From a virus, in IMG/VR virus record IMGVR_UViG_3300025162_000050, positions 6,838 to 70,837 of that record: a stretch of DNA of 64,000 nt; one strand, written 5' to 3'. Position 1 is the stretch's first letter; every line of letters starts with the position of its first letter. A program made the position numbers and the translations under genes. This document shows positions 2,753 through 36,505 of the stretch, piece by piece. The notes under the pieces were generated by a model. That model was not told where the DNA came from, made no database searches, and saw only the letters and a program-made list of their open reading frames with translations.

Positions 2753-2995
2753 ATGGGTGGATACATAAATGGAAAAGTAGAGATATTTTGTGGTGATTAT
2801 CCCCCTTCTAATTTAAACCTACTTTGATATAAAAGATTTATTAAGGATGATAAAGATTATTATGCCTTATATGAATTTAATATACATCAATTAATTTGGC
2901 AGCCAATTAATAGCTCTTTAATCACCTAGCCATTAATTTCAGAAGATGGTGATTTGATAAATGGCGAAGATGATTACCTTATAGTAGCCGAATAA
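2753..2995 (+). CDS. small putative structural protein with in-frame TGA (Trp) and a possible read-through TAG
   Basis: ATG 2753: MGGYINGKVEIFCGDYPPSNLNLL[TGA 2825]YKRF...SLIT[TAG 2927]PLISEDGDLINGEDDYLIVAE-TAA. It fills the gap between its neighbours and is missing from the ORF track. Confidence 0.6.
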
Positions 2996-3060
2996 AAACA
3001 TATAAAATGATAAATATATTTAAATTTATAAAGAATATAATATCTAAACTAATTAAACAT

Positions 3061-3732
3061 ATGGCATTAGAAAATAAAAAATTAAGTACATACGATGATT
3101 TAGCATCGGCAAATATAGATACGACCACTAAACTTGTAGTACTTACTGGGGCTACAAAAATAAATGCAAATCTTCCAGTAGCAGACTTTATAGAAGATAC
3201 GCTAACATCTAGTAGTGTAATTAAACCTTTATCTGCAAAGCAAGGAAAGGCGCTACAAGATTCTAAAGCTGCATTAGCTAGTCCAACATTTACTGGCACT
3301 GTAACGCTACCATCTACCACATCTATTGGAACTGTCAGTTCTACTGAGATTGGATATTTAGATGGAGTTACATCTGCAATTCAGACACAGATGAATTTAA
3401 ATGCCCCAAAAGCCGACCCAGTATTTACTGGAACTATATCTGGTCCAGATGGCGTTACCGAAAGTTTGTTTATTAAAGCTGGGGATCAGCAGATAATTGC
3501 TTATACAGTAAATGAAATTGAAGTAGATGCTATATTGAAATTAGGTTCTCGTGGTCATGGAATTGTTACAGAACTCACTGGGGACAGAATAAATATATCA
3601 ACAAATCCATTTGGAACAGTCTTAACTTTACCAGTGTTCGCAGACAATGCTGCGGCATTAGCTGGGACTTTAAACGATGGTGATTTATATAGAACTTCAA
3701 CTGGCATTGTAATGATAACTTACGCTGTATAA
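3061..3732 (+). CDS. putative fibre/head-fibre-like protein
   Basis: PLSAKQGKALQD, ASPTFTGTVT, EIGYLDGVTSAIQTQ and APKADPVFTGT are phage fibre-repeat-like motifs. The MALENK start at 3061 is preferred over 3007. Confidence 0.6.
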   Translation: MALENKKLSTYDDLASANIDTTTKLVVLTGATKINANLPVADFIEDTLTSSSVIKPLSAKQGKALQDSKAALASPTFTGTVTLPSTTSIGTVSSTEIGYLDGVTSAIQTQMNLNAPKADPVFTGTISGPDGVTESLFIKAGDQQIIAYTVNEIEVDAILKLGSRGHGIVTELTGDRINISTNPFGTVLTLPVFADNAAALAGTLNDGDLYRTSTGIVMITYAV

Positions 3733-3784
3733 TAACTATTTTAGTATCAATCTATATATTTTTCAGTAAAACATGTTAAAATGT

Positions 3785-3815: not shown

Positions 3816-3855
3816 CCCTAATTTATAATTTATAAGTAGATTATAAGTTAGGGCA
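3814..3855. repeat. 16-bp imperfect inverted repeat
   Basis: TGCCCTAATTTATAAT-N10-ATTATAAGTTAGGGCA. Confidence 0.8.
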
Positions 3856-3890
3856 TTGTTGTAAATAAGTATTAATTTAAAATAAAATAC

Positions 3891-4859
3891 ATGACTAAAG
3901 AAGAGGTTATTGCGATTTTCAAGGAGAAGAAATTTATGATTTTAATGGGAGCCAACAAGATTGCGAAGCAACTTAAAACAACTCCGGAAATAGTTAGAGA
4001 AGCGCGTTCTATCGTGCGTAAAAACATTAAAGAGTTTGGAACTACTTATCATCCAAAAGAAGTATCGTTTAAAAAGCCAGAAGTAAGATTGCCAAAAATA
4101 CTTATTTTTGACATTGAAAGTTCTCCAGCAATAAGTTACCACTTTGGAATGTTTAATATCAACCTATCGCTAGACCAGATTATAGAATATCCAATCATGC
4201 TTACGTGGGCTGCAAAATGACTATTTTCAGATGAAGTAGTGTCTGATAGAGTGACTGTTGAAGAAGTGTTAGCTAGGGATGATAGGCGTATTAGCGAAAG
4301 TATTTGGAAACTAATGTGTGAGGCTGATATGGTGGTTGCCCATTATGGAGATAAATTTGATATTCCAATGTTAAACTCAAGATTTATTATGAATGGATTT
4401 CCACCACCAACTAATTTCACATCAATAGATACGAAGTCAATTGCATCTCAAAACTTTAAGTTTATATCAAATAAATTGGATGCGCTTGCAATATACTTTG
4501 GATTTGCTAAAAAACTACACACAGACTTTATGTTATGGCGTAGATGTATGGAGGGTGAAGAACTTGCTATCCAGGAAATGCTGACATACAATAAAAGAGA
4601 TGTCACGCTTCTTGAAGAAGTTTACCTAAAACTTAGACCATACGCAAAAAGACATCCTAATGTTGGATTGTATATTGAATCAAATGAGCCAGTTTGTTCT
4701 CATTGTGGAAGTAGTCATTTGACATTTGCTTCAGAGTACTATACTCAAACAAATAAATATAAAGTTTATCGTTGTGATTGTGGTGCTTTAAGCAGGGTTA
4801 GACAATCATCCACAGATAAAAAAGTAAGAAATAATTTAACTATAAGCTTAGGAAAATAA
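3891..4859 (+). CDS. DnaQ/RNase H-like 3'-5' exonuclease with C-terminal Zn ribbon (TGA=Trp at 4218)
   Basis: Joins track ORFs 3891-4220 and 4239-4859 in one frame. Motifs: ILIFDIE, TWAAK[W]L, VVAHYGDKFD, YNKRDV, CSHCGS...CDCG. 322 aa. Confidence 0.85.
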
Positions 4860-5632
4860 TGGCACATACCTACAGGGATATTGTATACGCTATCTTTGAT
4901 GAGTGTAAGGTGATTTCTGACGACGCTTCACTCGAGGTAGAGCACGTAATTCACATTGCTCATAAATATCGTGGACTTTTATTCACACAAAAATATAAAG
5001 GCAAAAAGGTAGAAATACCTTTTGCTTATTATCAAAGACTTAATGTATATTTTGACACCTCATATAATAATGGGGAAGTATATCAATCAATTAAACAACT
5101 TCCAAATATATTAGACATTACCAATTTATGGCAATATACATTTGTACATAATGATGGTATGCGTACTGAAAATCTAAACTTTATCAATCCGCAAAGATTT
5201 AAGGTTGTCGGATATAATAAGTGGCTTAAAAATCAAGTGTATATAACGATAGATTTAGATAATAAGATGTATGTTAAAAGTCCCAGAAGCAACTCAGCCA
5301 ATCAAGTAAATCTTGTTGGAGAGGTAGATGTTATTACAGACGAATTAATTAACACTTTAATCTCGGAGGATGAATTAAGTCAATTGATCTCTGAGACCCT
5401 TGGGGATGCATATATCTATTATGATACAATACTTGATAATCCAATAGAAGGATATAGATTTAATGATGATGAAACTTTGGATGTACTAGACTTTACATTT
5501 CCATGCGAAGAGTCATTAATTCAACCAATCATAGATTTATGTCTTAAGGAGATTGGAATTATCAATGGCATTCCAAGAGATGCAACTAATAACGCATCCG
5601 ATGATTCAAGTCTACCTAAACAACAAAATTAA
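4859..5632 (+). CDS. putative tail ring protein (crAss-like)
   Basis: 257 aa, with TYRDIVY...SDD N-terminus and FP.E..L...I...P.D..NN..D C-terminus. TAATG-coupled to both neighbours. Confidence 0.6.
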   Translation: MAHTYRDIVYAIFDECKVISDDASLEVEHVIHIAHKYRGLLFTQKYKGKKVEIPFAYYQRLNVYFDTSYNNGEVYQSIKQLPNILDITNLWQYTFVHNDGMRTENLNFINPQRFKVVGYNKWLKNQVYITIDLDNKMYVKSPRSNSANQVNLVGEVDVITDELINTLISEDELSQLISETLGDAYIYYDTILDNPIEGYRFNDDETLDVLDFTFPCEESLIQPIIDLCLKEIGIINGIPRDATNNASDDSSLPKQQN

Positions 5633-6234
5633 TGGAGCAAACATTCGAAGAGTATTTAAAAGAAGTCAAGAATGTTCATGGTGATAGAAAACATAAAATA
5701 ACTGGAAGCCAGAATACTATAGCTGGCTTCAGTTATTATAGAAAGATTAGACCACAAGAGTCTAAGTTTGTACTTAAAGACTATCAATATCTATCTATCA
5801 TAAGGGAGATGAATAATCTATTAGCTGACTGTCTGGTTGAAAATAAATCAATTAGATTGCCATCAGGGTTTGGGAAACTAGAGATAGTTAAGTTTGAGAC
5901 TAAATCATGAATAGATGAAGGTGGTAAATTTATATCTAGTAAAATAGTTGACATGCATAACACATTTAAATTATGGCACGAAGACGAAGAAGCTAGACTA
6001 AATAAAATTAAAGTTAGATTTGACGAGGATTACATATTTAGAATTAAATATTCACCAAAAGGTAGGATATATAAATATAATGGATACTTCTTAATAAAAT
6101 TTAATCGGGAATTAAAACATAAACTTTCCAGATTTATTAAAACTAGTAATTACGACACCTATTTAAAACCATCAAAATACGCATGGCTAAAGCAAAATGG
6201 ACGAACCTCAGAGTCGTCGCAGATAAAATATTAA
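5632..6234 (+). CDS. IHF/HU-like DNA-binding protein (TGA=Trp at 5908)
   Basis: Joins 5632-5910 and 5953-6234 in frame. IRLPSGFGKLEI is the HU/IHF beta-arm motif, and the position before the tail tubular gene is typical of crAss. Confidence 0.7.
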
Positions 6235-6902
6235 GAGACCCAACATTTATTGGGTTGAATTTTGAAACTATAATTGACTACTTTGTTGACTTTATAACTA
6301 TTGTTGGAGTTCCTGAGTTATTTGATGAGAAGTTTACTAATACCGAAATACAAATAACTAATTATAGGGCTATACTACCAGATGATTTCTTAGAAGAAAT
6401 TACTGTGCAGATAGACCATAAGATTGCTAGAACAGCTACTGATACCTATTTTGGAAATTATCAAGAGTATGAAGATACTAACCCAAACGATTATTTTCCA
6501 GACAAACGCGCAGAGGCTACATACAAAATTAAAGGTAGTTATATCTATCTATCCAAGAAAGAGGGTAACTTACTTTTAAAATACAAATGCATTGCAACTG
6601 AAACTGATGTAGAGTCTGAAGATTATGGAGTTCCACTAATGCCAGATGACCCAGTATTTATTCTTGCGTTACAATCATATATAGAGGTTCAATTCTTAAA
6701 GATATTGTTTAGGACTGGCAAGATTAACAATCAAGTGTTGCAATTAGCACAACAAGATTATGCATGGAACGTAGGAAGATATGAGACTCATAGCAAACGT
6801 TTGACTACTGGCGATATGGAAACACTATCTAGGCTATTTAAATCAATCCTAACGCGCAATAACGATTTTAAAACACGTTTTTCACATTTAGGTAAAAGGT
6901 AA
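6183..6902 (+). CDS. tail tubular/ring protein (P22 gp4-like position in crAss)
   Basis: 239 aa, with YRAILPDD, G.PL.PDD..F..AL..YI and QDYAWNVG motifs. Immediately precedes the muzzle gene. Confidence 0.7.
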   Translation: MAKAKWTNLRVVADKILRDPTFIGLNFETIIDYFVDFITIVGVPELFDEKFTNTEIQITNYRAILPDDFLEEITVQIDHKIARTATDTYFGNYQEYEDTNPNDYFPDKRAEATYKIKGSYIYLSKKEGNLLLKYKCIATETDVESEDYGVPLMPDDPVFILALQSYIEVQFLKILFRTGKINNQVLQLAQQDYAWNVGRYETHSKRLTTGDMETLSRLFKSILTRNNDFKTRFSHLGKR

Positions 6903-6907
6903 ATATC

Positions 6908-9900
6908 ATGAAAATATCGTCACAAGTATATAAGCCGAAAGGAATGAGGCGCGATGAATCATACTCTGCATTTAATCCAGAGTTTTCATGAGATAATCAT
7001 AACATACGATTAACGGCAAGAGATAATAATGATTTATTAAGTGTAACAAATGAAAATGGGACACTTGAATTGATTGATGAAAATTTAATATCAATAGATG
7101 GAAAAACCCTTGGAAGTTGTGTTGTCAATGATAACCTGATACTTTTTACGCACTCAGATGGAATTGCCATAGATGAATCTATGATAGGACTTTCAGTTGC
7201 AGTGAAGTCTATAACAAAAATTGGTGAAAGTATATCTTATAATGTAGTTGATACCGAAACACCACAAGAAATCGGAGTTGCAAGATCATGTTCTGATGGA
7301 TATGCATTGGTAGAAAACAATGGAGAATATAGTTGTGAAAAAACTACAACCACATTATTAACAGATTCTCCAATAATAGGAAATACATGCTACATTCAAC
7401 ATTTTCAATTTCCAGACTACAATTGGTATGGAACTATGTTTTTCAAAGATGGATATAATATTGATGGATCGTGGTCGAGTGTAGATGAACTCTTATGGCC
7501 AACTATATATTCTACAACTCAATATATTGAAAATACTAACTATGTTGAATATACTACTGGACCGTTTATAAACTCAAACAAAAATACACTTGACGGAAGA
7601 CTTAACAAATGCGGCGTATGGCTTCAGGGAAGTCAAATATATAGTGCTACACAACTTGGCTTTGTAAGAACGATAAATTTTCCAGAATCAAAGGTTTATT
7701 ATTTTGGAATTGGATGTGATAATTACGGAGCCATATCAATTGATGGAGAGGACATGTTGAGTATGTCGATGGTTGAAAATACAAATAATTTTAGAGTATG
7801 AAATGTTTATCCAAAATATGTTGAGGCCGGAGATCACGAAATAACTATTACCAATACAAATATATATGCGTTTCCAGAAGCACCAGGAATACTTGGACTT
7901 GAAATATATACAGGAACTGAGTCGGAATTAATCGCATGTACAACAGATTTGGATCTTGAAAATTACATATTATTTTCAACTAAATCTCCAAACGTATTAG
8001 ATGGAGATATTTTTGAACTTGGTACAACTTTTTGTCAAAACCCAGAATATAGATTGGTTAAGGTTGGTGATTCTGGAACCTACGTTTGCCAAAAAATACA
8101 AACAATATTAGATGTTGAACCGCCCGTCGAACTCCCACAATATGAATGCGAAAACCCTGGATATGAATTAATTAATAACGACGGAGATTATTCGTGTGTA
8201 AAAAAAACAAAGGTAATTGCCTATATATATGAAAGTGTGTTAGAGTTTTCATCTGACTTAAACAATTTATCTGAGTCAATAGAACTGTCCTTTGATTATA
8301 CAGACAATAATAATAAAACAATAAATGTCAATTCATTTTTTTCTCCATCAAATGATAAACTTATATTTCATATTCAATCAAAACTCTCAGCCTCCATTTA
8401 TTCTATTTTTAATATAAGATTAAACAGATTGATGGATGATATAACTCCTATAGAAACATCTTCGTTCAGTTGAGATTCTGTTGGTGATTTATCATGGTTA
8501 ATTCCTGAGAATGTTGCTGTGTATCGTGAAAACAGGATTGGTGGGATAGATAATATATACAGATTAAATCATTTTAATGCGCCACAAAATATATCTACTA
8601 AATTATTATATTCGGGGGAATTAGGATTTAATTTAAATAATAAAATTCAGACACTTCCATTTTACGAAAATGAAAACGTTCAAAAGGTATATTGAATTGA
8701 TGGTGTAAATCAGACAAGAGTAATCAATATAATGGATGAAACATCTATATATAATAATACATCTTTTGATTTCGTTAAAACATTGGTTTTAAACGAAACA
8801 ATTTCTGTTACAAAAAATTATGGAGGTGGATTGTTCAAATCTGGTGTAATTCAATATGCATTTACATATTTCAATTTAAATGGATCTGAATCTAACATAT
8901 TTTACATTACTCCAATAAATTATATTTCTCCAATTGATAGGGCTGGGAAGGTAGATGAAATCGTCCCTAATACATTTAATATAAATATAAATGGATTAGA
9001 TGATAGATTTCAATATGTACGTATATATTCTATTTACAGAACATCTGTAGATTCTACACCGGAGCTTAAAAATATTGTTGATTTAAAGATATCTAGTGAT
9101 ACAATATCTTACACGGACACAAATACTAATGGGTCTGTCGTTTCCAGTGATTACTTACTATTTGTTGGTGGAGAGGAATTGATCTCACAATGCATGTCTC
9201 AAAAAAGTAACACTTTGTTTCTGGGAAATATAACAAATGGTATAGATCAGTCAAACATTCCAATTGCGCTCACAAATGCAAACGTAGAATCTAACATACC
9301 AGCACATACATCAACGTTTTCGTGGATTTTGAGTAGTCCCTTAGAAATAGAATCAAAGAGTTCGTCTACAATTTATCCCTATTTGCCAAAGTCGTTAAAC
9401 ATCACAGATCCCAATGATATCATAAAGCATTTTAAATATGATGAAACATATAGACTTGGGATACAAGGACAATTTACAAATGGAAGATGATCAAATCCAA
9501 TATGATTAGGAGATGATTATAGGGTTGATATGAGATATAAGGCTAATTATTTAGGTTCAAGTAATGAAAAAAGTATTGTTGCTGAAAAAGTTTATGGACA
9601 ATACACAATGGATTCTACGCTATGTTCTTATTTGAAAAACGAACTTAAATTTCATAAGATTAGACCAGTTATGGTTCCATTAAAATATTCTGATAGAACT
9701 ATAATAGCACAAGGATTAACTAACAATACTCTTGGCATAATGAAAAATAGATATGGTGCTAATCCATCTTTAATGCCATTTGCATATCCTGACTATTTAT
9801 TTAGAACAAATGGAAAGAAAAAAAATCCATCATATAATGAGTACGATGGAGCATATTCGCATTTTGATTTATTAAAGTTAAATAACAATCTAATAAGACA

Positions 9901-12568
9901 ATATGGGACTGACCCAAATCTATATATAGAAATAATGGCAAATGGTGATACGTGAGATTATCATGATATTAATCACTACGGAACCAGTCCAAATGAATCA
10001 CAAGGATCTGTTGGAGCTATGAATGGCGATTTTGAAAGAGACTTCTTTTTCGTGGATAGAAATATGGTTAATTTTTGAAGTCCAGAATTAATTTATAACG
10101 GAGACGTTGTAAACACTTATATGCCATCGGTATCAAAGGTTGGATTATATGGATTTGCATTTGAGTCTGGGGCTTCTTTTTCGTTTAAGATAGATTCTGG
10201 CAATATTGACAAAATAACTGGAACCCATAATATATCAATTTCTAACCCCAACTACAATGTTGGTAATTTAATAATGGATTCGTTTCCAAAGAGATTGTAT
10301 GCAGATATAGGTGTAACCGGTATTGGAGGAGGTGGTGGTTTTAACGAAACTGATTACCCCCCATATGGACATTGTATTCCTATATGAAGTCCCGCAAACT
10401 ATTACGCCTATATAAATCGAAGAACATATCATAAGTCAACCCAGACAGACATTGATTTTACCGAAATGAATAAATCTGGATCTAAATACTTTGGAGTTAA
10501 TATTACTTTATCTAATAATCAATCGTGTTTTTTTGACATAAATAAACCATTATTTGTCTATAATGATTCCAGTACATATTATAATTCAAATATAAATGAC
10601 TATTCAGTTAATTCTGGATTAATAATATATGGGAAAAATGTAAGTAAGTCATATCCATCAAATACGTATTTTAATACTCTTAGAAGTTGCGCATCTCCAT
10701 GACAATTAAAGTATGCTGTTTCTCCAGATAAAAATCCACATAGTTTAGAAGAACATCCAGGCATTACTAGGGGAATGGAAATTAAATACAACACTGCATC
10801 ACATGTCTTGTTTTCATTTAAAGCGGATAATAATGGATATTTTCAGTGCCTACCAAGATTACAAAACAATTCTGGAGATATCGTAAATGAACTTGTTAGT
10901 GGTCAGTCAGAATGGTATGGAGGTTCAAGAAATTATCAAACAAAAGTACTTAGTAGGAATTTATATACGAATGATTTACCATCTATATCAAACGAATCAT
11001 CTGTAAATTCAGTTCCAATATTTGACCTATATACTGGTAATCCTTCAGATAAGGATGACAGTAGATATGGGGGAAAGGAAAGATATTCTATATTAGGGAA
11101 TAATTGAATTTCGTGTGGAGATCCGATTGCCATTAGTTCTGCTGGAACAGTATTAAATTTTACAGAAGGTGATACTTACTTGCAAAGATTTGACTTGTTA
11201 AGAGTCTTTCCTAATGATATATTGCAAATTCCACAACACACTGAAATTATATCCTTTATATGCGAATCATTTATAAATCTCGATGGAAGGTGCGATGTCA
11301 ATAGATATAATAATGATAGTTCTATGATGACTCCAACTAGCTATGGATTATTTAATTCTGTATATTCTCAAAAAAACAATTACTTTAATTACGACGTATT
11401 AGACCCATTGTTATTTAACACAACAGAATTCAGTAATACTATAATTTGAAGTAAGACTAAAGTTACTGGAGCTATAAATGATACTTGAACAAACTTAAAT
11501 ATGTTGAGCTCAATCGACTTAGATGGAGTATATGGAGAAGTATCTTCAATAAACCTATTTAATAACGATTTGTACGCACTTCAACCTAAAGGTGTAGCTA
11601 GACTACTATTCAATGAGAGAGTTCAACAGCAATCCTCTGATGGAGTGTCAGTAGAACTTACTAATGGATATAAAGTTCCTGAGTATAGATATATATCAAA
11701 TCAATATGGCTGTAATAATAAGTGATCAATAGTTGAGGGCAAGGGAGGTATTTATTTTGTAGACTATATTAATAAGTCACTAATATCTATTGGTGATGGA
11801 TTAAAAGATATTGGTTCTGCCGCTGGATTTAAATCATGGTTCAACGAGAATACTTTAAATAAAAACTATACATTATCTTATGATAGAATTAATAGTGATT
11901 TATATATTCACGATGAAACTAATTGTTTAAACTACTCAGAGGTATTACAATCATTTGTATCATTTTATGATTATATAAATGTTCCTCAAATGAGAAATGT
12001 ATGGGATAATTTCATTTCTATAAGTTACAGCAATACAGAAGGTGTTGTTAATCAATTACTATCTAAAGATAATTCTAATTTAATATCAAGCGAGTCAAAT
12101 AGTCAATTGGTTTCAGAAGATTCTGATTTAAATAGGTCTATGATATGATTACATAACAAAGGTAATTATAATGAGTTTTATGGAAATCAAAAGCCATTCT
12201 CTATTGAATATCTATTAAATCCAGACCCACTAAATGATAAAACATTTAATACCTTTGAATATAGATTAAACGACCAATTTATTGATTGGAATAATCTTGA
12301 AGTAACTAATTGGTATCAATATGGAGAACTCAACGATAGGCAGTATTTAAACAGCCTTAAACGCAAGTTTAACGTCAATAGGGTACAACTACCAAGACAA
12401 TCTAAAACACTTGATAATTCAACTGGATTAATCAATTTAGATACACGCAACTCGTTAAATAGAATACGTTCTACATGGGCTAAATTAAAATTATCTCATA
12501 ATGTAACAGATACTAATATCAATAAGAAGTTTGATATGCAAGATTTGACTGTAACCTATACAGTTTAA
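6908..12568 (+). CDS. tail stabilization/muzzle protein, 1886 aa, 15 TGA=Trp codons
   Basis: One frame from ATG 6908 to TAA 12566 with no TAA/TAG inside. TGA at 6989, 7799, 8471, 8693, 9488, 9503, 9953, 10076, 10385, 10700, 11105, 11447, 11486, 11723 and 12146. Contexts include KVY[W]IDGVNQ.R.INI, GR[W]SNPI[W]LG, II[W]SKTK, DT[W]T and GCNNK[W]SI; EGDTYLQRFD is also present. Confidence 0.9.
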
Positions 12569-12576
12569 AATAAGAG

Positions 12577-12614: not shown

Positions 12615-12622
12615 GTTATATA

Positions 12623-12654
12623 TTTGGTAGTCTGAAATATTTACTTTACCTTTG
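12623..12654 (+). promoter_or_regulatory. Bacteroidota primary-sigma type promoter
   Basis: TTTG (12623-12626), a 20-nt spacer, then TACCTTTG (12647-12654). Shares GTAGTCTG in the spacer with the 3785 promoter. Confidence 0.75.
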
Positions 12655-12713
12655 TCAAGATTTATAAAATTTTGACAAAAATCAATTTAAAACAACAATA
12701 TAAATGCTTAATT

Positions 12714-15428: not shown

Positions 15429-17332
15429 TGAGTATAAATGCTTACGATCAAATAAATTATTCTCAATATAAACCTCTTTCAATGCAAGAAATCTGAGCAC
15501 CAGCGCAAGAAATGCGTAGGCAACATGATCAATTACAAGAGGAGTATTCACAGCAGGAGCAACAAGGTTCATTATCATTACTTGGTATAGATAAAAACCT
15601 TGATAAGAATGCTTATGATATTCAACAAAACTTTATAAATAAAACTAAAGAGGCTGCTGATTTATTAGCAACCAAAGGAGTTATTGATTCTGGTAGACGT
15701 AGACAGTTATCAGAACTTAAATCAATGTATGCTCAACAAGTAGTTCCGCTTCAAAACGCTTTAACTCAAAGAAGTCAACGTGCTGAAGAATATAGAAAAC
15801 TTGGAATGGATAAAAACAATATTCTAGGAGTAAATCCAAATAATATTGCACTAACAGATATTGTTGGTAATCCAAAATCTTTAGATTATAAATTCCTTAG
15901 TGGAACTCAAATGGCAAAAGATGTGGCTAATGAAGCTAAACAATTTGCTGATAGATTTGACAATAAAGATATTAAAGATTATGGTGCTAAAGTTGGATTC
16001 AATCATCTTCTTGCAATACGGCAAGGAGTTGACCCAACAACGGTATTGGCTGCTATGAAAAATGACCCTAAAGTTATGGGTACTGAGGGTGGTAAAAAAG
16101 TATATGACCAATTAGTTGGTATAGTGAATTCTGTTACCGATAGGTATGGATTAAAAGATATAGCCACAACTCCAGAAGAATACAATAGAGGATGGCAAAT
16201 AGCATCATCTGGATTATCAGAAGCTATTGGAAAGGTAACACCGATGCAAATGCATGATGATAAGGATGCTTATAATTTTGAACATCCTAAAGTTTCAGAA
16301 AATTATGATCCATTAGATAATACGGGTAGGCAAGTAATTACTTCCGAGGGAAGAATTGTTAATGATCTATATTCTGGATTAACTCCAAACTTTGACAAAT
16401 CTGGAAATGTTATTGATTATACAGTTAAAGATTCAAAACAAATGGAGACATCTTATAATAATCCATACGGTGGATTATCAAAAAATAGAAATCAAGTTTT
16501 AGGTGAAAGTACATCCAATATAAAAGAATTAAATCAAAAACAATCATCTATAAAACAATTAATTTCTGAATATAGAGAAACAAAGCCAGAATTAACCGGT
16601 AAAAAGACAGACGAACAAGTTTGGACAGGAATGAAGGCTGATTTAGAAGGGGTGAAGATGGCTTCTCAAAAAATGAATCATACATTTACCTCCGTTAAAG
16701 ATCCAGATGTTTCTAATGCAGTTATAAATGATATATTTGTAACAAATTCTCCAGGAGCAAAAGTATTTAGATATGGAAAAGACTATAGTAATGATACTGA
16801 AACCGGTTATGATTTAGGTAAATTTGCAAAAGAACTTGGAGCAACACCAGTTGAATTAGCTGCTTGGCTTAAAAAGACTGGTCAAAAAACATCGTTAATA
16901 AACGAGAGTAGCGCATATGGATATTGGTTTCCTAAAAAGTTTACAAAAGATAAACAAGGAGATTTAGTTCCAGCTTCAGATGATATAGTTGAAGTTGGTG
17001 TTGCAAGTAATCCTGGTCAGAGCAATTCCATTCAGGCTATAGAAAAGATTAAAAAAGCAAAATGGAGTTCTGAAAAGAAAGAAGTTGTTTTAAATCCAGG
17101 AGAAAATGCTGTATATGATAGAAATTCTGGAGCATGAGTAGTTGAAACATATGATCCAAAATCAGATGTTGTTAAAAGAAAATATTTCAAGGATGAGAAT
17201 CAAAAAGAATTTCTTGGATATGGAAAAGATAATGTATCTTCAGATGAATATAGATCTATAAAAAACTCAAGAATTATAAATAATTTAACAAAACTTCATT
17301 TTGATATAAATAATCAAAACGATAAAAAATAA
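15428..17332 (+). CDS. putative virion cargo protein, 634 aa, 2 TGA=Trp
   Basis: TAATG-coupled ATG at 15428. TGA at 15494 (PLSMQEI[W]AP) and 17135. Ends at TAA 17330-17332, just before the next ATG. Confidence 0.8.
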
Positions 17333-17335
17333 TAA

Positions 17336-26300: not shown

Positions 26301-29300
26301 AAATATCTGTTATAGAGAAATTTGATGATGAGAGTCAGAAAGAATTTGCAGAAAGAGCATTTAAATCAACTTTTGGATATAATGAAAAATCTAATATAGT
26401 TGAAATGTCTGCCATTATGCATAGAGAACTGGCTCGTAATAAATGAACTGAAATACAAAACACATTTAATTCGTTAAAAGAAGAACGACTTAAAATTGTA
26501 AAGAATAAGAATGATAATAACAATATGACTATCTCATCAACAGATGGTCAGTCATCTTCAAAGAATACGACTTTAGTTGGTGCTTTAAAGAAGAAAATAT
26601 CAAGCAAATTTAAGACTATTGATGAATTCAAAGCGTTTGTAACCAAAGATAAAAAGTTTGGCAATCCAGAAGTTTATGATAGTATAAAGAATGATCCTGA
26701 CAAAATAAAAGAATATTGTTTTGACTTCTTAAAGAAGATTGGTATTACCAATATCAGCAAAGCATCTGGTAGTGATATTAAATACACTGATTTAATGAAT
26801 AATATTTATCATTTTATGCGTACTAATGCATTGATGGCAATAGAAAAGATTGAATCAAGTAATAAAATATTTGAATTTAATGATAATTCTAATCTATTGG
26901 ATGACGAATTAAGAATGTCAGATGAATATGTTGAAGATTTATTTGAAGATGAAGGTGGTATTTTAGAATCTATATCAGACTTAGTAAATCCCGAAGATAA
27001 TCAAAGTGTTAGTTCTACGTATAGAGATGCAAAAGGTAAGAGATTGTATATGACAGTTCCTACCTCTTTTGCAAGCAAGGTATTTAAACAGTTAGGAATG
27101 ATGAAGTTATTCTCAAAATTTATTAATTTGCCACAATACCTTAGTACTGACTTTATGAAAGACAACATTATACAAAAAGGTCTTCAGGAGATTTATACAT
27201 TTAGAATGCATAGTGGTATTTTAAATACAAGTAAATACACAGATGATTCAGTTGTTGAATATGATGGTGAAGGATTCTCTCAATTTATATTGAGAACATT
27301 CTTAGCTGACTTTCTATCAAACTTTAAGAAATCTAAAAAGGGTGGTGATTATACATATGAACAACCTGTATACGTTAAGTCTAATAGAAAAGATTCTCAA
27401 TCAGCAAAGATAAACGTATTGTCATCTCGCAATATATTGGAAACTATATTTCCAACTATATTTAATCAGATGATGAAACAAAATATATCTGATGAATCAA
27501 GATGGGAAGATTACAGTGTAGATTCATTTGTAAATATGAAAAGATTAGAGAATGCATTAAGAGATGTACTTGGTGAAAACTATAAGTCGATCTTTAGAGA
27601 AATGCTTTCTAACAAACAATCTTTCTCAGACTTTACTTCTGAACAACAGTCTGCAATCAAAGAACATTTAAGAAATCAATTCGAAGAGGAATCTAAAGTT
27701 GTAGCTAAAAAGATTGTAAATGAAAATGTACAATTTGATGCAAAGACGAAAGATTTAATAAAGAATCTTCTTATGTTTAATGGAATGTCAGAAGTTGATG
27801 CAAAAGAAGTTATCAAAGATTTTTCTGAGAATCAGTCTAAAAACAACAACGCTAAAACTGGTAATACTGGAGTCTATTCTAATAAGCCAGAAATGTTTGA
27901 AAAAGCTATTGAGTTATTCTTAATGAATAATTATGTTAATTCATATGCTGTTACACAATTAGTAACTTCAAACAATAACTTCTTTAAGAATGGAACTTCA
28001 CTGCTTAAACGTATGTCTGTTGTATTTGGACCTGGATTATCTCCTACGGTTGGTGATTTAGGAATGAGAACAACAGCTAAAGTCTTAGTGATAGATGATG
28101 TTAATTACAAGCCAGAAGATAGAGCTATAATGATGAAGGCCGCAGGGTTCTCTCAAAGTGATATTAATGCAGTATTAGAAAAAGGTGGTGATGGTATAAC
28201 TGAATATGCAGATGGACAAGGATTTATAACCCCTAAACGCCATGCAGAATTAACTCGTGGTTATGGCACTTCATATAAACTGTCAACAGTTGGAAAACCA
28301 TTATGGTACACAATTGATGATAATGGAGTTCCTCATGCAGTTAAATATTCATGGGTGGTACTTACTGACCAACTGGTAAAAGATAATCCTCAGTTAGCTA
28401 ATTTAAGGGCTAATATGGATACTCATGATATTGGTGAGGCTGTATTTAAATCAGCAGTTAAAGTTGGTATTCCTAAAGGTATACACAGTTGGGAAGAGGC
28501 AACTTCAAGTGGATTAAAAGTAAATGATTCATCTACTATGACACTTAAAAATGCTGACTATAGATTACAGTTAAATCCAGCACACGACTTTGGTGAAAAT
28601 CACGTATCAATTCCTACACAGTTAATGTATATACTTAATATATTTCATGGTAATGAAGAAAGAGCTATGAAAGCATACGATGCATACAATAATATTATTA
28701 AGTTAGGATTATCTACTTTGATGGAATCCTTATCAAATAAAGGTGTTCTTAGCGAGTCTAAGATATCCAAAATGGTATTGAGGAAATTAAGGGGTTCTAA
28801 GTCTGCTGAAGTTGAAGCTGAAATGTTTGCCACTGGTATATCGCAAGACTTTCCAACATTAAGTAATAAAATAGTTAGCCAAATAGCATCTTTGTTTTCA
28901 AAGAATACTATATCAACTAAGTTTATGGGCGGTAAGACCGTTTTACAGGCTGCTGTTGGAGTTAAAAATAGAGAAGGCAAGGAATTATCATATAGTACAG
29001 AAACTATCAATGGTAAGCGCCACACAATCTCTGAAGCTTTAATTACTCATGATATGGCTGAGAAAACATTACCTAAAGAAGTATTTGATTATTTAGATGA
29101 ATTCTTCTCTAATCCAGCAAATAATGGTAAATCTCCAAGGGTTGCTATTGTTGGTGGTGATATGTTAGGATTTCGTATTCCATCATCTGAAATACATAGT
29201 GCTGTTGCACTTAAAATTGAAGGATGGTTTGAAGGTACTGGTAATAGCATCATAGTTCCTAAATATATTGTAGAGATTCACGGTAGTGACTTTGACGTTG

Positions 29301-31975
29301 ACTCGTTATTTATTATTGGTAGAGAATTTATCAAAGATAAAGATGGCAAGATTTTAAACTATAAACAAGTTGATGGTAAATGGGTATTTAATCAATTATC
29401 ACAAGATGAGATTAATAACTTATCTTATGGTGATAAAATGAAATACTTTAAAAGCATCATTACTGACTCTATATTAGAAGCTACAGTAGACCCTGTTAAT
29501 ACAGTCAGAATGCAATCTCCTATTACAACAAAGCAATTGAGTGATGTTAGACAGGAGATATACAATGAAACTGGAACTAAAGCAACTAAAAAAGACTTAG
29601 ATAATTCTGATTTTATGGAATCGTTTGAAGCTCATCAGTCATCTCATAATGGTTCTGCTGGAACTGGTATTGCTGCTAGTGCATTTAAAACAATTGCATA
29701 CGCTATACGGGCTGGAGAAAATAACGAGATACCAACAGTAACAACTACTGGTCAACAATTAATGATTGATGGCAAATTAGTTGATAAATTATCAAATAAT
29801 TTAAAGCTATACGAATGGCTTGACGCTTTGGTAAATGCTGCTATTGATAATGTGAAACTTCAAGTATTACCATTCTTTAATTTAAATTCAAATACATTTG
29901 CCATATTCATTGGGATGATGGCAATGGATGGAGTTGGTTTAAAATATGCAGCTAGAATGTCAAGACAATTGTTCTTTAAACAAATAGCTGACTTTAAATC
30001 TCCAACATCAAGAGATTTTGGATTTAAAGAAACTAATAAATTAATTGAAGAATTAAAACAACTAGTTAAACATGAGTCAATAGAAGCTACGGATTATCAA
30101 TATAAAGATTTAGTTCTTCAAGAATTGAAGGATTCATTGAAGTTTGCAACTGATAATAATATATCTTCATTATCTGAATACTTATCTGATTTAAGGTCTG
30201 GTAAGGTAGAACTAACTGATGAACATAAAGCTTATATTAATTCTCAAATAAAATTCATGGAATATCTCAAAACATTTAAAAAGATAGGTGGTGACTTAAC
30301 TTCATTGTCTGGATATTTATCTATAATAAGAGATATGCCAACAACACAACTTGAAATTGAAAGAAAACTAGAAGTTGAGAATGATATATTTGAGAAAGAC
30401 GATAATGGCAATATGGTTTCTAAAGAGAACTTCTCAATAGGTCTTAAAAATTTATTTGAATCTGCACCACATATTAAATCTGCATCAGAAGTCTTACATC
30501 AATTAAATGATGTAAATAAGATGTATATATTCAAACATGGTCCAATAGTAAAATCACTTATAGACTCTATTAAATCAAGTCCAGAAGCTATTAATGAATC
30601 ATTAAAACCTGAAAGTGAATTAGAGGATACTGAAAAGTCAAATTCAAGTTCAATAAAAGGTGGTAAGGAAACAGAAATATCTATGAGAGATGAGGTTATT
30701 AGATTCTTAATGAATTGTATTAACTGAGATCCAAAATTCAAAGGATATGATTCTATACCAGATGCTAGAATAAAAGTTAACAATAAAGAAACTAAAGTTT
30801 CTGGTGTTGATGCTTTTAAGAAAAACTTTGGTAAAAAGGTTGAAGCTATAATGAGTTATTTGGAGTCAAACAATATTCCTAATAGATTTATGAAAGAATT
30901 AGTTGGTACTGTAATGTCTAATACTATTATAGATTGGAAGATGCCACGTTCTGTTGAATTTAAATCAGATGATATTATTCAATTAAAAGCTGAATTCGAT
31001 AAACTAAGTCAATACGACGTTGTTTTTGAAGACGGTAAATACAAAGTAGTTCTTTCAGATAATTTAGATTATAAAGAATGGCAGAAAGACTTTGTTAGAT
31101 ATGGTATATCAGTTAATGGAATGTCGTTTGGTGCTACTAATTTTTCAATGGTATTACCAGACGCATTATATAAACCAGTATCTGATGGACTATCTAATCT
31201 TATTAGCAAAATAAAATCTGATAGCACTGTGTTAATGAGAAATAAGTTAAACTTCTTCTATCAATATATAATGAATAATCCAGAAGTTATTAAGCTTGCT
31301 TATTTGAAGAAAGTTACATCCAAAGGTAAATATTCAGGTTTTGCAGAGATAAATGGTCAAACACATTTTTATGATATGCAACTTGAATCTAAATCTGAAG
31401 ATGATAAATTCAACTTATTAATAAGACAAGTAAATAATAAAGGCAAATCATTCATATATAAACTTATTGGAGTTAATGGTAGTTCGCTTTACTATGTGAA
31501 GTTAGGTGCTGAAAATCCTTCAAATTTTTATAATATGTCAGAAGATTTATTCTTTGGTGCTGACGGTGATTTTTATATCAATACAAAAATTCCTTCATTA
31601 GCAGTAATTAATAACAATGACAAAGAGTTTAAACTAGAAGGTCGTGATGGTAAGGAAAATGATTTATTATCAATGCTTAAAGCTAAGTATGATAAAAATC
31701 CATTTATCATTGCAGTACACAATTATACAGACGTAATGAGAACTGGTTCAAAAGAAGTTGTTGTTGAAATTAAAGGCAATAAACTTGTAGTCGTTGATGA
31801 AAAGGTTTATAAAGCTACAGTAGAAGAAGAAGTAACTGAAGTTGTTGATAATTCATTTGAAGCAAATAAAGACGATATCTTAAATAAATTCGCTGAAGAA
31901 ACTCAAGAATCTTGGGATGCTAAAAACGAAGAAATCAAATCTGAATTAATTAAACAAATTAAAGAGGGTTGTTAA
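17336..31975 (+). CDS. giant virion RNA polymerase polyprotein, 4879 aa (SF1 helicase-like + zincin + two-barrel RNAP), 3 TGA=Trp
   Basis: Four track ORFs share one frame and are separated only by TGA at 18404, 26444 and 30725. Motifs: catalytic GSDFDVD (~29282), RIP (~29174), DGQG (~28211), HEAFH (~24965) and GIAGTGKT (~21386). Confidence 0.9.
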
Positions 31976-31990
31976 TCAATAAAAATAAAT

Positions 31991-34900
31991 ATGGCAAATT
32001 GCATAAATATTAATCATCCAGAGTTCCTCCAAATGGTGAGGGACTCTGGTCTTTCAAGAGCAGATTTATGTGCTCATATAGGTATTTGGATGAGAAATAA
32101 CAACTCTGAAAATTGACCAACATTAGAACAATTAAATTTAAATAAATCTGACGAAAGTAAATTATCAAACGTTTTTGAAAAATTAATTGTATTATCTAAG
32201 AATGCAAAAGATTCAATTTCTAAAGTTATTGATTTGTTAGCTAAATCCTCTAAAAGAGATGATTTAATTCTAGGAGAATTATCTAAAAGATTATTCAATA
32301 ATACGTCTTATCAAATACTTAGTTCTGGTGAATTAAAAGAAAGATTTAAAGAGTTTAATAAAAATGATATTGCTTTTTACGATGTTTCATCAAACATAAT
32401 CTTTATTAACTCAGACAACAAATTAAACTCAGATGATAAAGAATTCTCAAAAACAATGATGCATGAAATTATACATGCGGCAACAGTTCAAAGAATTAAA
32501 CAATTAGCCAATAAGATAGCAAATAAAACCGCAACTAAACAGGAAATCGAATTAAATGATGAATTAAATAAAGTTTATTCATTAGCCAAATTAAATCTTC
32601 AAGATAAATTTCCACAATACTTTCAAGAAACTAATTCATTGGAAGAATTTGTTGCTGGAATTTTAGACCAAGACTTTCTTGATGAATTAAATAAAATTGA
32701 ATATAATGAAAATGCAAATTTATCATTAAAAGATAGAATTTTATCAATTATCAAACAAGTTCTTGGAATAAACGAGAGGACTCTTGCTGCTGCTGCTTTT
32801 ACTAATTTATTTAATTTGGCTGACATTAAAAATGATGAAGAGTTTAATCCATCTGAAGAAATATTTAAACGTACTGAGGGTATTGAAGATTTAAGTGAAG
32901 AGACTCAAGCTATCATAAACAAAAACGAAGGTCTTGAAGTTGAAATGGTCACTAATGAAGCTGGTTTACAAGTCCAAGGTGAGCATTACATTAATTCAGA
33001 AGGAAAACTATTCAATCGTATTACTTATGGCGCTAAATCGCTTCTAAAGGCGTTCCTACCATATACATTTAAACAGAATGATGATTACGCGAAGTCAGAG
33101 GCTGATAGACGTTGGGGAGAATACGACCATAGCACCAAATTTTCTATTGAAGGTAAATTATATACATATGATGAATACTTAGAAAATCTTAGAACTATTA
33201 ATACTCGTGGAACTGCAAAGGGTAATATTATCCATGCATTAAACGAGTTAATAAATGCAATAACAGCAGAAAATATTAGTCGATTAAAAGCTAAAGTTTA
33301 TTCTATCGAGGAAGAGAATGGTATAACTCATGGTAATTACAATTGGTTTACGAAAAGTATTAGACAGATATATGAAACTCTTGGAATAAATAAATTTAAT
33401 GATAATATTCCAATAGAACTTAGAGATAAAGTTGTATGTGAGGTTCCAATATCAAGTGAATTACTTGGATATGGTGGTTCTATAGATATGTTAGTTGAGC
33501 ATAATGAAAAGATAAGGAACTATCTTGGAGAAGAAGTTGGTAATATGATGAGTATCTATGATTTAAAATCAGGATATTCTGTATTAAATAAACTTGGTAA
33601 TGCTGTATTGAGATATGGAGAGCAAAGTAAATATATTAGTAATGGAGCTATGGATATGGCAAAACTTCAGGTTATGTTATATGCATTTATGATTAAACTT
33701 GAAAATCCTAATCAACAATTTAGAACACTACAAGTTGTTACCGTTCAAAATGAATACGAAGCCACTAATAAGCATAATGATTCAGTTGTAGAAGTTGATG
33801 CTTATCTTGGAATGCTTGAGGAATTTTTTAGGGATAAAAAGTTAATGAAAGAGTTGGAAATGGAGGATAATCTTTATTCAAAAATGATAGCCCAATCACC
33901 TAATTTATTTACTGAAAGTCATTATCATCATTCTCAATTTGAAAAGTCGGATATTGCAAATGTAGAAGAGTTGAATACGAAAATAAATTGTCTACAACAA
34001 TCATTACATGAAATTGGTATTAAAGATAATCCAAGAAAAGAGATCGAAATTCAAGAAAAATTAATCGAGCTCAATAAGCAAAAAATGGATTTAGAGAGTG
34101 ATTTCAATCAAATACCATTCGACCAAAATAAGGCAAATAGAACCTCATTTCTTGCGAGATGGTTGGGTGGACTTAAAGATTCTAACAATCCACTAGTTAT
34201 TGCTTTTAGACGAGCATGAGAAGCTGCTGAAGTTAGAGTTACAAAAAGACAATTAACAGCAGCAAATGAGATTGGCAAAGAAATGGACGCACTCAGAAAA
34301 GAGTATTATCAATCTAAAGGTATAATGAAATCTATAGAAGGTGATAATCTTGATATGTACAAACCATTACTTAAAGAGGCTTTTGTTGAAAATGTTGGTA
34401 GTGTAGAAAGACTTATTATAGAGTCAGATGAGGAGTGGAATGGTTTAACTCAAGTTCAAAAAGATTTTATATTAAAGCATGAAGAAGTAATGCGTAGAAT
34501 ATTTCTTGAAAAAGATGCTTATATTAATAAAACAGCATCCTACGATGTAAATAATAAACCTAAATCACACTTAAAACTTCAAAGCCCTGATTTTATATAT
34601 TATCCAGGATTCTTTGCAAAAATTCAACCATCTAAATTGGATCTACAACGTAGGATGGGAGATGGTAGTGTTAGTGCTGCTTTACTAAATCCTAAGTATC
34701 ATAAATCTATGTTGGCAGATGCATTATCATTTAATAATGAGAATATATTTGATAAATACGATGATGATAAAATCGCAATACCAATTAAATATTTAGGTTC
34801 AAGAGAATGGGATTCTAAGAGATACTATTCTTATGATATTGGAACAGCACTTATCAACTTTAATTCATGGATTGAATACAAAAAAGAGATGGATGTTATT

Positions 34901-36505
34901 TATACTGCTGGAAAATCTATCACATTCCAATTAGGTCGTGGATTTAAAAGCGATGAAAAAGATTTAAATACAAATATTCAACGAGAAATTGATATAATAA
35001 ATGGATTTTTAAGAAAAAATGTTAGGGGTATATCTAATACTGGTGAAGATTGGTTTGCTGGTAAACCGCCTAAAATCATGACTAATCCAATAACTGGACA
35101 ACCAGTATATTTCTTACCACAGAAATTTATGTCTGGACTATCCAGTTGGGGTAGACAAACTACTATGTATTTAAAACCTTGGGGTGCTACCGGTAATATG
35201 GTTCAACAACAATGGTTATTGCATAGAAATGGATTAAATTATTCATGAGCTAAAAAGTGGTTTGGAGATGAAAATAGTCAAACTGATTATAGTTTAGCTG
35301 ATGCTGTTCAAGGAGATTTAGCTTTTGCTGAAATAGCCAAAGATATGGTATTGAACAATCTTCATAACAATAAGATATGGAGATTGATGGAAATGCATAA
35401 CTATATAGATGGAAACTCAATGAAAGCTATTGAACGTAGGTCTAAGACACTTAGGGAAAGAACTTCAATAAGTGAGGCTATGTTAATACTTCACAGTACT
35501 GGTGAGCTATTTTCATTGGTTACAACTTATGTAGCTCAATTGAATCATATGAAACTTAAAGATGGTCGTTCATTCTTAGATGCTTATGAGATTGATGAAA
35601 GTGGTGAAGTTGCATGAACTGGTGGTTCTCGTGGTAAAATTAAAATGCTCGATGGCTCTTATAGGGAATTAGATGAACTTGATAGTAATGAAATATCTAG
35701 GTTTAAGCGAGTTCATGAAAAAATGTTGGGTAGTTATCGTTCTGATGAGTTTTGTGGATTAGAACTGTATGCTATGGGTCAATTCTTCTTATCACTAAAG
35801 AAATATTTTCCAAGAATTGTATTAAACTTATTTGAAGGTAAAAAAACTGATTTTTATCTAGGTGAATATGCCAAGATAGGACAATACAATATCGAAGGTA
35901 AAGATGAAGATATATACGCATGGAAAGGTCGTGAAATTGAAGGTAAGTTTAGGTCTATAATTCATGCGTTTTCAATTGCTGCATCATTTTCAACTTTAAG
36001 ATTTGAAGACGCTAAGCAGAAGTGAGAACAACTTAATTTTGAACAAAAGCGCAATATCCTTGAAGGTATACAAACATGCGCTGAATGGGCTGCTCTTGCC
36101 ATTCTTTATTCTATGGTATTTGGTGCAACTTCAGATGATGATGCTCGTAAGAAATGGTTTAAAATGTATATGTTAGACAACTTAGCTCAACAGTATAATC
36201 CTATTGACCAATTAAGAACATTATCAAATGTAACACCAGTAGGTCTTGCAAAAGCATTTAAGGCTGGTGTTGGTATATCTACAATGTCTTTTGCTCTTAT
36301 GGATTTAGGTATGGGAGATATGGAAGGTGCTTATACTCAAGAAGGCGATTTGCGTGGTTGGACTGAGGTTCAAAAGTCTATTCCATACTATGCTTCATAC
36401 TATGATTTCTTCAAGAAATTAAGCACTATATCTGGATCAACTGATGGACAAGAAAAATCTTGGTTTGAAGGATGAGCTGATATGGATTACACTAAAACTA
36501 AATAA
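31991..36505 (+). CDS. large cargo protein with zincin and PD-(D/E)xK nuclease-like domains, 1504 aa, 6 TGA=Trp
   Basis: ATG 31991 to TAA 36503, with TGA at 32114, 34217, 35246, 35615, 36023 and 36473. Motifs HEIIH...EEFVA and E..I...GSIDML...YDLKSG...QVMLYA. Hydrophobic helices near the C-terminus. Confidence 0.85.

Follow-up and report, generated by a model that had tools for sequence, protein, structure and literature searches.

UGA as a tryptophan codon in the late genes of a freshwater crAss-like phage, with a phage tRNA(UCA) as the likely decoder

The genetic code used by a crAss-like phage was examined in a 64,000-nucleotide (nt) stretch of DNA, referred to here as the window, which comprises bases 6838-70837 of one 70,837-base IMG/VR contig (G000; record IMGVR_UViG_3300025162_000050). 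In the late arm of this phage and in two mobile endonuclease genes, UGA very likely encodes tryptophan (Trp) beside UGG, with TAA as the sole stop codon; the early arm is in the standard code, and the decoder is likely to be a phage tRNA with the anticodon UCA, tRNA(UCA). Recoding of TGA to Trp in the late genes of crAss-like phages is already in print, and the present phage adds a freshwater lineage.

The phage and its nearest relative

The contig has no terminal repeat and contains no N, and its completeness was estimated at 71% by CheckV. GC content is ~30%, and both GC skew and gene orientation switch at ~36.5 kb. Crassvirus Pfam families were found on the + strand, namely the muzzle protein (PF25731, 4e-219), MUZ_C (PF25729), CARG1, CARGO2, Ring 1, 2 and 3/4, and AuxCP, and Crass_capsid (the major capsid protein) was matched on the same contig directly upstream of the window. 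The Crassvirales structural gene set is represented by these families together with the upstream Crass_capsid, which identifies the source, on gene content, as a crAss-like phage with its late (virion) arm on the + strand and most of its early arm on the - strand in the window.

Nine sequencing runs, which come from four studies, contain at least half of the sampled words of the muzzle gene; their labels are freshwater, lake water or freshwater sediment, gut being absent, and no RNA run with the sampled words was found among the runs listed. This places late-gene TGA recoding in a crAss-like lineage from freshwater, lake water and sediment runs. The IMG/VR record G001 (78,719 bases) aligns colinearly with the contig, nucleotide identity being 70-88%, and has a matching layout, in which the + arm is recoded and the - arm lacks in-frame TGA. 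No closer relative emerged from a scan of metagenomes, in which L111 was found to be the same sequence as the IMG/VR contig L052 discussed below.

In-frame TGA codons in the late arm

When TGA was treated as a sense codon, 15 open reading frames (ORFs) of at least 90 amino acids (aa) that end by position 36505 were counted on the + strand, and seven of these carry 32 in-frame TGAs: one each in 3891-4859 and 5632-6234, 15 in 6908-12568, four in 12624-15428, two in 15428-17332, three in 17336-31975 and six in 31991-36505. All 15 stop at TAA, and neighbouring rebuilt genes adjoin or share a few bases at their borders (4859/4859, 5632/5632, 6902/6908, 15428/15428, 17332/17336 and 31975/31991). An earlier note on this DNA had stated that the breaks between + strand fragments are all TGA and that the rebuilt genes end in TAA and abut their neighbours. 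Both statements hold, and the contexts that it quoted were found in the sequence (WAAK[W]L at 4218, KVY[W]IDG at 8693, GP[W]GA at 13101, GCNNK[W]SI at 11723 and ARNAAK[W]H at 14448). It had taken all 32 sites as sense codons, and 31 of them can be retained. TGA 12633 belongs to an AT-rich 5' extension of the cargo-1 ORF, three codons past a TTG; nothing in G001 aligns with it, and it is probably non-coding and upstream of the start, so that the credible sites appear to number 31. The range of 2753-36505 that it had given for the recoding is correct for the sites inside it but too narrow, as seven further in-frame TGAs occur in + strand ORFs of the same contig upstream of the window, and five in the gene at 56234-56896.

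Coding density, which the earlier note had proposed to compare between translation tables, rises when TGA is taken as sense. Within 2753-36505, + strand ORFs of at least 60 aa cover a fraction of 0.889 in 30 pieces under table 11 and 0.985 in 16 pieces with TGA as sense, a larger gain than in either control (0.899 in 45 pieces with TAG as sense; 0.936 in 56 pieces with TAA as sense). For annotation this means that table 11 returns ~30 fragments, from which the muzzle, cargo and giant proteins are lost, and table 4 returns 16 ORFs with known crassvirus families.

The sequence that follows the TGAs evolves as coding sequence. Over the 663 nt that separate eight TGAs from the next table-11 start, and that table 11 would leave non-coding, differences from G001 at codon positions 1/2/3 number 15/12/55, and 194 of the 221 translated aa are identical; this is the pattern of coding sequence and indicates translation of these intervals in the frame of the TGA. 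The giant ORF is made up of four same-frame table-11 pieces (17336-18406, 18455-26446, 26525-30727 and 30851-31975). Its counterpart in G001 (4885 aa, 11 TGAs) has TGG at two of the three junctions, the first and the second, and TGA at the last, and the stretches after the three TGAs are identical to G001 at 82 of 86 aa, with 4/2/22 differences by codon position. In the muzzle protein (1886 aa), the Pfam profile match runs across the TGA sites, and a 96%-identical protein of the same length from another source is present in the database.

The residue encoded by TGA

Three independent tests agree in supporting Trp as the residue specified by the late-arm TGAs, at the level of sequence comparison. 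In the first, the muzzle protein was aligned with 120 database homologues, and W was the majority residue in nine of the 15 TGA columns: 596 (119/120), 861 (113/120), 866 (73/120), 1160 (111/118), 1400 (118/119), 1514 (114/120), 1527 (119/119), 1606 (107/119) and 1747 (98/119). The six remaining columns are not mostly W, which counts against the assignment: column 28 is Y/F, 1016 and 1265 are I/L, 1057 is H, and 298 and 522 are covered by only four sequences. The 12 TGG positions of the same protein are equally mixed, with W ranging from 119/119 down to 13/119. A further reservation is that some of the database homologues were possibly themselves translated with table 4, and a codon-level test on DNA was therefore added.

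In nine loci, the 139 aligned cells at TGA sites held TGG in 71 cases, TGA in 35 and other codons, mostly aromatic or hydrophobic, in 33. Five standard-code phages (L005-L009; one IMG/VR contig and four named crassviruses) had TGG in 42 of 66 cells and TGA in none, against a TGG background of 80 in 11,958 codons in these genes. At site 14448, TGG was present in all five standard-code phages; site 4218 had TGG in three of four recoded relatives and in G001; and site 5908 had TGA or TGG in four recoded relatives and was not W in the five standard-code phages.

The third test used G001, a relative with 85% identity. Its codons at the 32 TGA sites are TGA (16), TGG (10), AAT (1) and ATC (1), with four unaligned. 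The TGG codons of the contig correspond in G001 to TGG in 56 cases, TGA in 23 and other codons in six, and the TGAs of G001 correspond in the contig to TGG in 23, TGA in 17 and other codons in seven. Altogether 36 exchanges between TGA and TGG (13 + 23) were found, set against none with serine (Ser) or cysteine (Cys) codons and two with GGA (Gly), showing that TGA and TGG are used as synonyms. The reading of TGA as Trp in the earlier note, which had proposed that the residues opposite each TGA be tabulated, is therefore supported by the homologue columns, by the standard-code phages and by the exchange with G001, and it also agrees with the coding-type divergence downstream of the TGAs.

Standard code of the early arm and recoded mobile endonuclease genes

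The early arm was represented by 47 non-nested - strand ORFs of at least 60 aa called with table 11, a procedure that by itself builds in the absence of in-frame TGA from this set. These ORFs are complete and abutting without read-through, contain 107 TGG codons (TGA:TGG 0:107, compared with 32:80 in the + arm) and stop at TAA (37), TAG (6) or TGA (4). None of the 47 fuses with a same-frame neighbour under table 4, and three of the four TGA-ending ORFs would be extended by only 2, 8 and 12 codons. The early/replication genes are thus, one inserted endonuclease excepted, in the standard code.

The exception fills a gap (56212-56850) in the early arm with a 220-aa ORF (56234-56896, - strand), which appears only when TGA is read as W. 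All five of its Trp codons are TGA and none is TGG, and it is the only recoded gene of the early arm. Its product matched NUMOD3 at 25.1 bits (cut-off 20.4) and has, by eye, a GIY-YIG-like N-terminus. The gene is missing from G001, and homologues were found at two loci, where a single TGA site was informative and was TGG in both. A second such gene lies upstream of the window, where the capsid gene is split (G000, locus L322, coordinates 3839-6214), with Crass_capsid residues 2-77 in 3839-4084 and 112-495 in 5027-6214. The insert contains a GIY-YIG ORF (4191-4847) with three in-frame TGAs and is probably an intron with a homing endonuclease; the capsid gene of G001 is unsplit. The late code thus also marks mobile endonuclease genes, one of them inside the early arm.

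tRNA(UCA) genes in related phages

The region around the terminase gene, terL, which in the closest relatives is recoded and opens the late arm, was surveyed by scanning IMG/VR with the C-terminal part of TerL, which gave 78 loci, 17 of them with TGA inside TerL. Among the TGA-containing loci, the eight that extend furthest upstream (6.3-10 kb before the match) all have a tca tRNA, at a distance of 3.5-6.3 kb upstream of the TerL match. The 61 loci whose TerL lacks TGA have no such tRNA, and where TerL contains TAG the tRNAs are of the cta type. The 78 loci thus provide a clean comparative case, in which a tca tRNA goes with TGA in TerL and a cta tRNA with TAG. In the relatives, the UCA tRNA lies within a + strand block free of TGA just upstream of the recoded TerL.

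G001 on its own contains no UCA tRNA. It shares a 127-nt overlap of 100% identity at both ends with L033, a 14,081-base IMG/VR contig, and the two together form a circle of ~92.5 kb. L033 carries a tRNA(UCA) at 3997-4090 (called by ARAGORN; Rfam 51.8 bits) and a tRNA-Leu, both on the + strand in an ORF block nearly free of TGA, ~3 kb ahead of a TerL gene that bears an intein and 10 TGAs.

Four runs that contain window DNA, in the form of contigs, were aligned to L033 at 80% likeness, the parts of L033 without cover in these runs being uninformative either way. In three of the four, one contig was colinear with L033 1686-12776; it is 17,915 bases long, has a depth of 20 in the likely source run, and lacks the 996-base TerL intein. 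L052 shares all 33 of the listed differences of this 17.9-kb contig from L033 (12-19 for the other candidates) and carries a tRNA(UCA) at 5961-6054 (ARAGORN), flanked by a GroEL-like gene on one side and, on the other, by a TGA-free block ahead of a TerL with six TGAs.

Several observations tell against a tRNA(UCA) in this phage. No tRNA was called by ARAGORN in the window or the whole contig, and Rfam found in the window only a weak non-UCA tRNA (54178-54251). The 17.9-kb contig is unaligned at 80% across the tRNA (96 nt, joint 3994-4091), which is uninformative either way. L052 overlaps neither end of the contig, as is true of all the TerL loci examined, and its link to the phage is one of co-occurrence only; its UCA tRNA is below the Rfam gathering threshold and was called by ARAGORN only. 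Nine TerL loci with TGA have no tca tRNA. These extend only 1.8-3.9 kb upstream of the match, which may explain the absence, although three of them (3.8-3.9 kb) are long enough to include the shortest distance observed, 3.5 kb.

Other tRNA-like sequences were also considered. Calls made by ARAGORN with lowered thresholds or with introns allowed (26-194 on the contig) were treated as noise. The sequence at 54178-54251 (- strand) folds as a cloverleaf with an 8-base anticodon loop, GUUAACAA, and was not called by ARAGORN; this loop, GUUAACAA, rules it out as a UCA suppressor. The matching site in G001 (locus L014, 4181-4310) is a 130-base tRNA match with a 62-base insert. At 61407-61577 (- strand), a perfect 7-bp acceptor stem and D-arm-like and T-arm-like parts surround an insert of ~100 bases; Rfam gave nothing above threshold at 61200-61700, and the syntenic position in G001 (L014 11033-11162) holds a 130-base tRNA match (40.9 bits) with a 55-base insert in the anticodon loop.

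A ribozyme near the suppressor tRNA, as described in PMC10879173, was not found at the Rfam gathering threshold in L033 or L052. A Pistol ribozyme (59.3 bits; cut-off 34.5) is present elsewhere in G001, among small early ORFs near its end (L014 16684-16746, - strand). A GroEL-like chaperonin gene in the standard code (Cpn60_TCP1, 1.6e-62) lies directly upstream of tRNA(UCA) in both L052 (4031-5611) and L033 (1741-3297). The TerL intein (Hint/homing endonuclease) occurs in L033 (7040-10333) and L030, and its 996 bases are missing from L052 (8981-11278). In L130 (600-672), the tca tRNA differs very little from the tRNA-Glu(ttc) found in related crAss-like contigs and may represent a recent anticodon change.

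A long-armed tRNA(UCA)

The UCA tRNAs of L033, L052 and L058 are 93-94 bases long, with the anticodon loop CUUCAAA and a long variable arm, the hairpin loop of which is UUCCAAC or GUCCAAA. An exact scan of IMG/VR for the anticodon loop, UCCAA and T loop in combination found 29 stretches, all 29 of which were called by ARAGORN as tca tRNAs (93-98 bases, 25 distinct). In a control scan without the UCCAA constraint, nine ARAGORN tRNAs were found among the 80 loci listed: eight tca tRNAs, every one with UCCAA in the extra arm, and one odd ttc. In 28 distinct sequences, the commonest extra-arm loops are CUCCAAA (9), GUCCAAA (5) and CGUCCAAAA (5), the first base is A in 24 and the discriminator is G in 27. 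RNAalifold predicted five arms for these 28 sequences, and the four pairs of the extra helix have changed on both sides in 17, 15, 8 and 3 of them around a fixed loop. The tRNAs have a 7-bp acceptor stem and a 5-bp T stem, and mostly A1-U72/G73.

The loop CUCCAAA is, we presume, that of the anticodon of tRNA-Trp. The variable arm would then present a second, CCA-type anticodon loop in a tRNA that reads UGA. The main Trp identity elements in bacteria are given as the anticodon, G73 and the first acceptor pair (PMC9976931). As the anticodon is a major element for the bacterial tryptophanyl-tRNA synthetase (TrpRS), a spare CCA arm may preserve recognition by the host TrpRS despite the changed anticodon. 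It is tentatively suggested, at somewhat less than even chances, that this clade decodes UGA with a five-armed tRNA in which the NUCCAAN arm, resembling that of tRNA-Trp(CCA), would serve TrpRS and the anticodon arm the ribosome. If functional, the spare Trp-anticodon hairpin would be a natural uncoupling of tRNA reading from tRNA charging. No description of such a spare-arm design was found in the literature searched, a search that covered main texts and not supplements.

Ordinary UCA tRNAs of 73-74 bases are present in the relatives L034, L039, L041/L042 and L063, indicating that the long arm is not essential for suppression. When the UCA tRNAs were aligned globally with 597 other phage tRNAs, the nearest isotype did not emerge clearly; those with the long arm aligned best with tRNA-Ser, probably on account of length alone.

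Proposed mechanism and alternative explanations

Under the proposed mechanism, the early arm, being in the standard code, would be translatable as soon as the phage enters a host that uses the standard code. Decoding would most likely fall to a phage-encoded tRNA with the anticodon UCA, located in the TerL-proximal part of the genome that is missing from the contig. Once this tRNA had been made and charged with Trp, ribosomes would pass the TGAs, and read-through would yield the muzzle, cargo and giant internal proteins in full length, as well as TerL and the portal protein in relatives. We infer the presence of tRNA(UCA) in this phage, its timing, and a standard code in the host, the last from the code of the early arm only. 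A switch of code during infection, as the earlier note had suggested, would fit an early arm that is complete in table 11 and includes four ORFs stopping at TGA, and the location of the relatives' UCA tRNA in a TGA-free block upstream of TerL. The further suggestion that this switch gates virion production applies in part: the muzzle, cargo and giant proteins need read-through, but the major capsid, auxiliary capsid and ring 1-4 genes contain no TGA. Nor does the code divide strictly by arm, since one homing-endonuclease gene of the early arm is fully recoded.

An improbable alternative is that the phage has no decoder of its own and that its TGAs are read through by the host tRNA-Trp(CCA), for example after release factor 2 has been weakened, or by a suppressor encoded by the host. 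The lack of a UCA tRNA on the 70.8-kb contig fits this, as does the termination of all late genes at TAA, a codon served by release factor 1. Recoded phages without a detectable suppressor have been noted by Yutin et al. (PMC7886860) and by Borges et al. (bioRxiv 10.1101/2021.08.26.457843), the latter reporting a suppressor in only 35% of TGA-recoded genomes. However, the 71%-complete contig lacks the TerL-proximal region, precisely where the tRNA is found in all eight recoded relatives of sufficient length; the closed genome of the nearest relative (G001 with L033) has a UCA tRNA, and the matching contig L052 co-occurs with the phage. The scanned ORFs of the contig, L052 and L033 yielded no Pfam domain related to release factors or TrpRS. 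Less probable still is a host with code 4, to which the phage would merely conform. TGA is Trp in the hosts Mycoplasma and Spiroplasma (Borges et al., bioRxiv 10.1101/2021.08.26.457843), but crAss-like phages are known from Bacteroidota (PMC7886860), and the relatives encode a UCA tRNA of their own. A phage of a code-4 host, in which TGA would be sense throughout and never a stop, was rejected on the early ORFs, which are complete under table 11 with four TGA stops and a TGA:TGG ratio of 0:107 beside 32:80 in the late arm.

Equally improbable is that TGA specifies another residue, whether Gly (code 25), Ser through a long-armed G73 tRNA, Cys or selenocysteine (Sec). The extended variable arm and the G73 of the UCA tRNA in the nearest relatives are features used by seryl-tRNA synthetase (PMC7609411), and ARAGORN labels this tRNA as tRNA-SeC, a label that derives from the anticodon. 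Yet the TGA columns hold W or aromatic and hydrophobic residues and not S, G or C, the exchanges with G001 are those described above, and the UCA tRNAs combine a 7/5 acceptor/T-arm structure with A1-U72, G73 and a conserved UCCAA in the variable-arm loop. Code 25 was dismissed, as no TGA site has a G-rich column and pairing with GGA occurred twice compared with 36 times for TGA/TGG. Sec was likewise dismissed, as a single gene can have up to 15 TGAs, which align with W, and the tRNAs are of the 7/5 type rather than the 8/5 type of tRNA-Sec (no search for a selenocysteine insertion sequence was made). The least probable explanation is that the TGAs are real stops or damage, the pieces being separate small genes, pseudogenes or products of assembly error. 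Although the table-11 pieces do form ORFs and have start codons, the separate record G001 has TGA at the corresponding place for 16 of the 32 sites and TGG for 10, the stretches from TGA to the next start evolve as coding sequence, the muzzle profile and the 96%-identical protein from another source span the TGAs, and nine runs from four studies hold at least half of the sampled words of this stretch. TGA as a Trp codon, decoded by a phage tRNA(UCA), thus remains the favoured explanation.

Other features of the window

The features identified in the window are listed in Table 1. In the giant protein, the sole Pfam match is a P-loop helicase-like domain (residues 1346-1468). The 1504-aa protein is specific to the clade, with a counterpart in G001 that is 86% identical and has 15 TGAs; it had no match in the phage collection, and its match in IMG/VR was G001 only.

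In the early arm, a cluster at 43172-52214 (- strand) encodes two GGACT-like proteins, an amidoligase, class-II and class-I glutamine amidotransferases, a phiEco32-like COOH-NH2 ligase and an ATP-grasp enzyme, and may be concerned with metabolite, peptide or base modification. At 37786-38689 (- strand), a dATP/dGTP diphosphohydrolase N-terminal domain (PF18909) lies beside a 5'-deoxynucleotidase (NT5C), a pair that hints at nucleotide-pool control. Upstream of the window (G000, L322, 1102-2515), a 197-aa ORF with two TGAs and, by eye, a hydrophobic N-terminus precedes a peptidase M15 gene (likely endolysin) without TGA.

Table 1. Genes and other features of the window, with in-frame TGA codons
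Feature	Coordinates	Strand	Basis and codon usage
Ring protein 3/4	353-1069	+	Pfam; 0 in-frame TGA, stop TAA
Auxiliary capsid protein	1097-2014	+	Pfam; 0 in-frame TGA, stop TAA
DUF5856-like protein	2048-2446	+	Pfam; 0 in-frame TGA, stop TAA
Tail-fibre-repeat protein	3007-3732	+	Pfam; 0 in-frame TGA, stop TAA
DNA polymerase exonuclease-subunit-like protein, RNase H fold, 322 aa	3891-4859	+	phrog_403 2e-87, PF13482; 1 TGA (4218)
Tail ring protein 2	4859-5632	+	PF25702; 0 TGA
200-aa protein	5632-6234	+	phrog_12177; 1 TGA (5908)
Tail ring protein 1	6183-6902	+	PF24228; 0 TGA
Muzzle protein, 1886 aa	6908-12568	+	PF25731 4e-219, PF25729; 15 TGA, 12 TGG
Cargo protein 1, Q-rich	12672-15428	+	PF25725; 3 TGA (13101, 13191, 14448)
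Cargo protein 2, 634 aa	15428-17332	+	PF25712; 2 TGA (15494, 17135)
Giant ORF, 4879 aa	17336-31975	+	3 TGA (18404, 26444, 30725)
1504-aa ORF	31991-36505	+	6 TGA; weak zincin-like metallopeptidase motif
Early/replication arm	36610-64000	-	SNF2-type and DnaB-like helicases, primase zinc ribbon, nucleotide enzymes, amidoligase/ATP-grasp cluster, HNH endonuclease
Weak tRNA-like gene	54178-54251	-	Rfam RF00005, 34.5 bits
Homing-endonuclease gene, 220 aa	56234-56896	-	NUMOD3 PF07460; 5 TGA

Comparison with known systems

The earlier note had stated that stop-codon recoding of late genes is known in crAss-like phages, and this is reported by Yutin et al. 2021 (PMC7886860), who describe 243 crAss-like phages in which either TGA is recoded as Trp or TAG as Gln, mostly in late genes. 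Those phages share with the present one the Crassvirales gene set, in-frame TGA at Trp positions, a bias towards late genes, and inteins or introns with recoded ORFs in conserved genes. Suppressor tRNAs are present in many of those genomes and match the recoding imperfectly. However, that survey was of circular human-gut genomes, whereas the present clade comes from freshwater, lake water and sediment runs.

In the model of Borges et al. (bioRxiv 10.1101/2021.08.26.457843), a code switch times the late or lysis genes. The recoded phages of that preprint also have standard-code early genes and recoded structural genes, a code-change element in the standard code just upstream of the recoded genes and, in another phage group, a homing-endonuclease gene within the early region that is preferentially recoded. 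The module of their Jade phages additionally includes TrpRS and release factor 1, neither of which was found in the scanned ORFs of the present contig, L052 or L033, and their crAss-like example is recoded at TAG, whereas the present phage is recoded at TGA. The TAG to Gln crAss-like phages of Peters et al. 2022 (PMC9523058) belong to the same order and share the idea of late-gene reassignment, but involve another stop codon and another residue, and are supported by metaproteomic proof where the present case is argued from DNA sequence.

In Mycoplasma and Spiroplasma (code 4), UGA is likewise Trp and is read by a tRNA with a UCA anticodon. Code 4 covers the whole genome and the host, whereas here only the late genes and two mobile genes are affected and early ORFs stop at TGA.

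In tRNA-Ser, the length of the extra arm outweighs its sequence (PMC9976931). Class II tRNAs (Ser, Leu, Tyr and Sec) and allo-tRNAs (Mukai et al. 2017, PMC5389517; Krahn et al. 2020, PMC7609411) share with the long phage tRNAs described here the long variable arm, G73 and, in some, the UCA anticodon. The phage tRNAs differ from them in their 7/5 structure, in a mostly Trp-like A1-U72/G73 acceptor end and in the fixed NUCCAAN loop of the variable arm.

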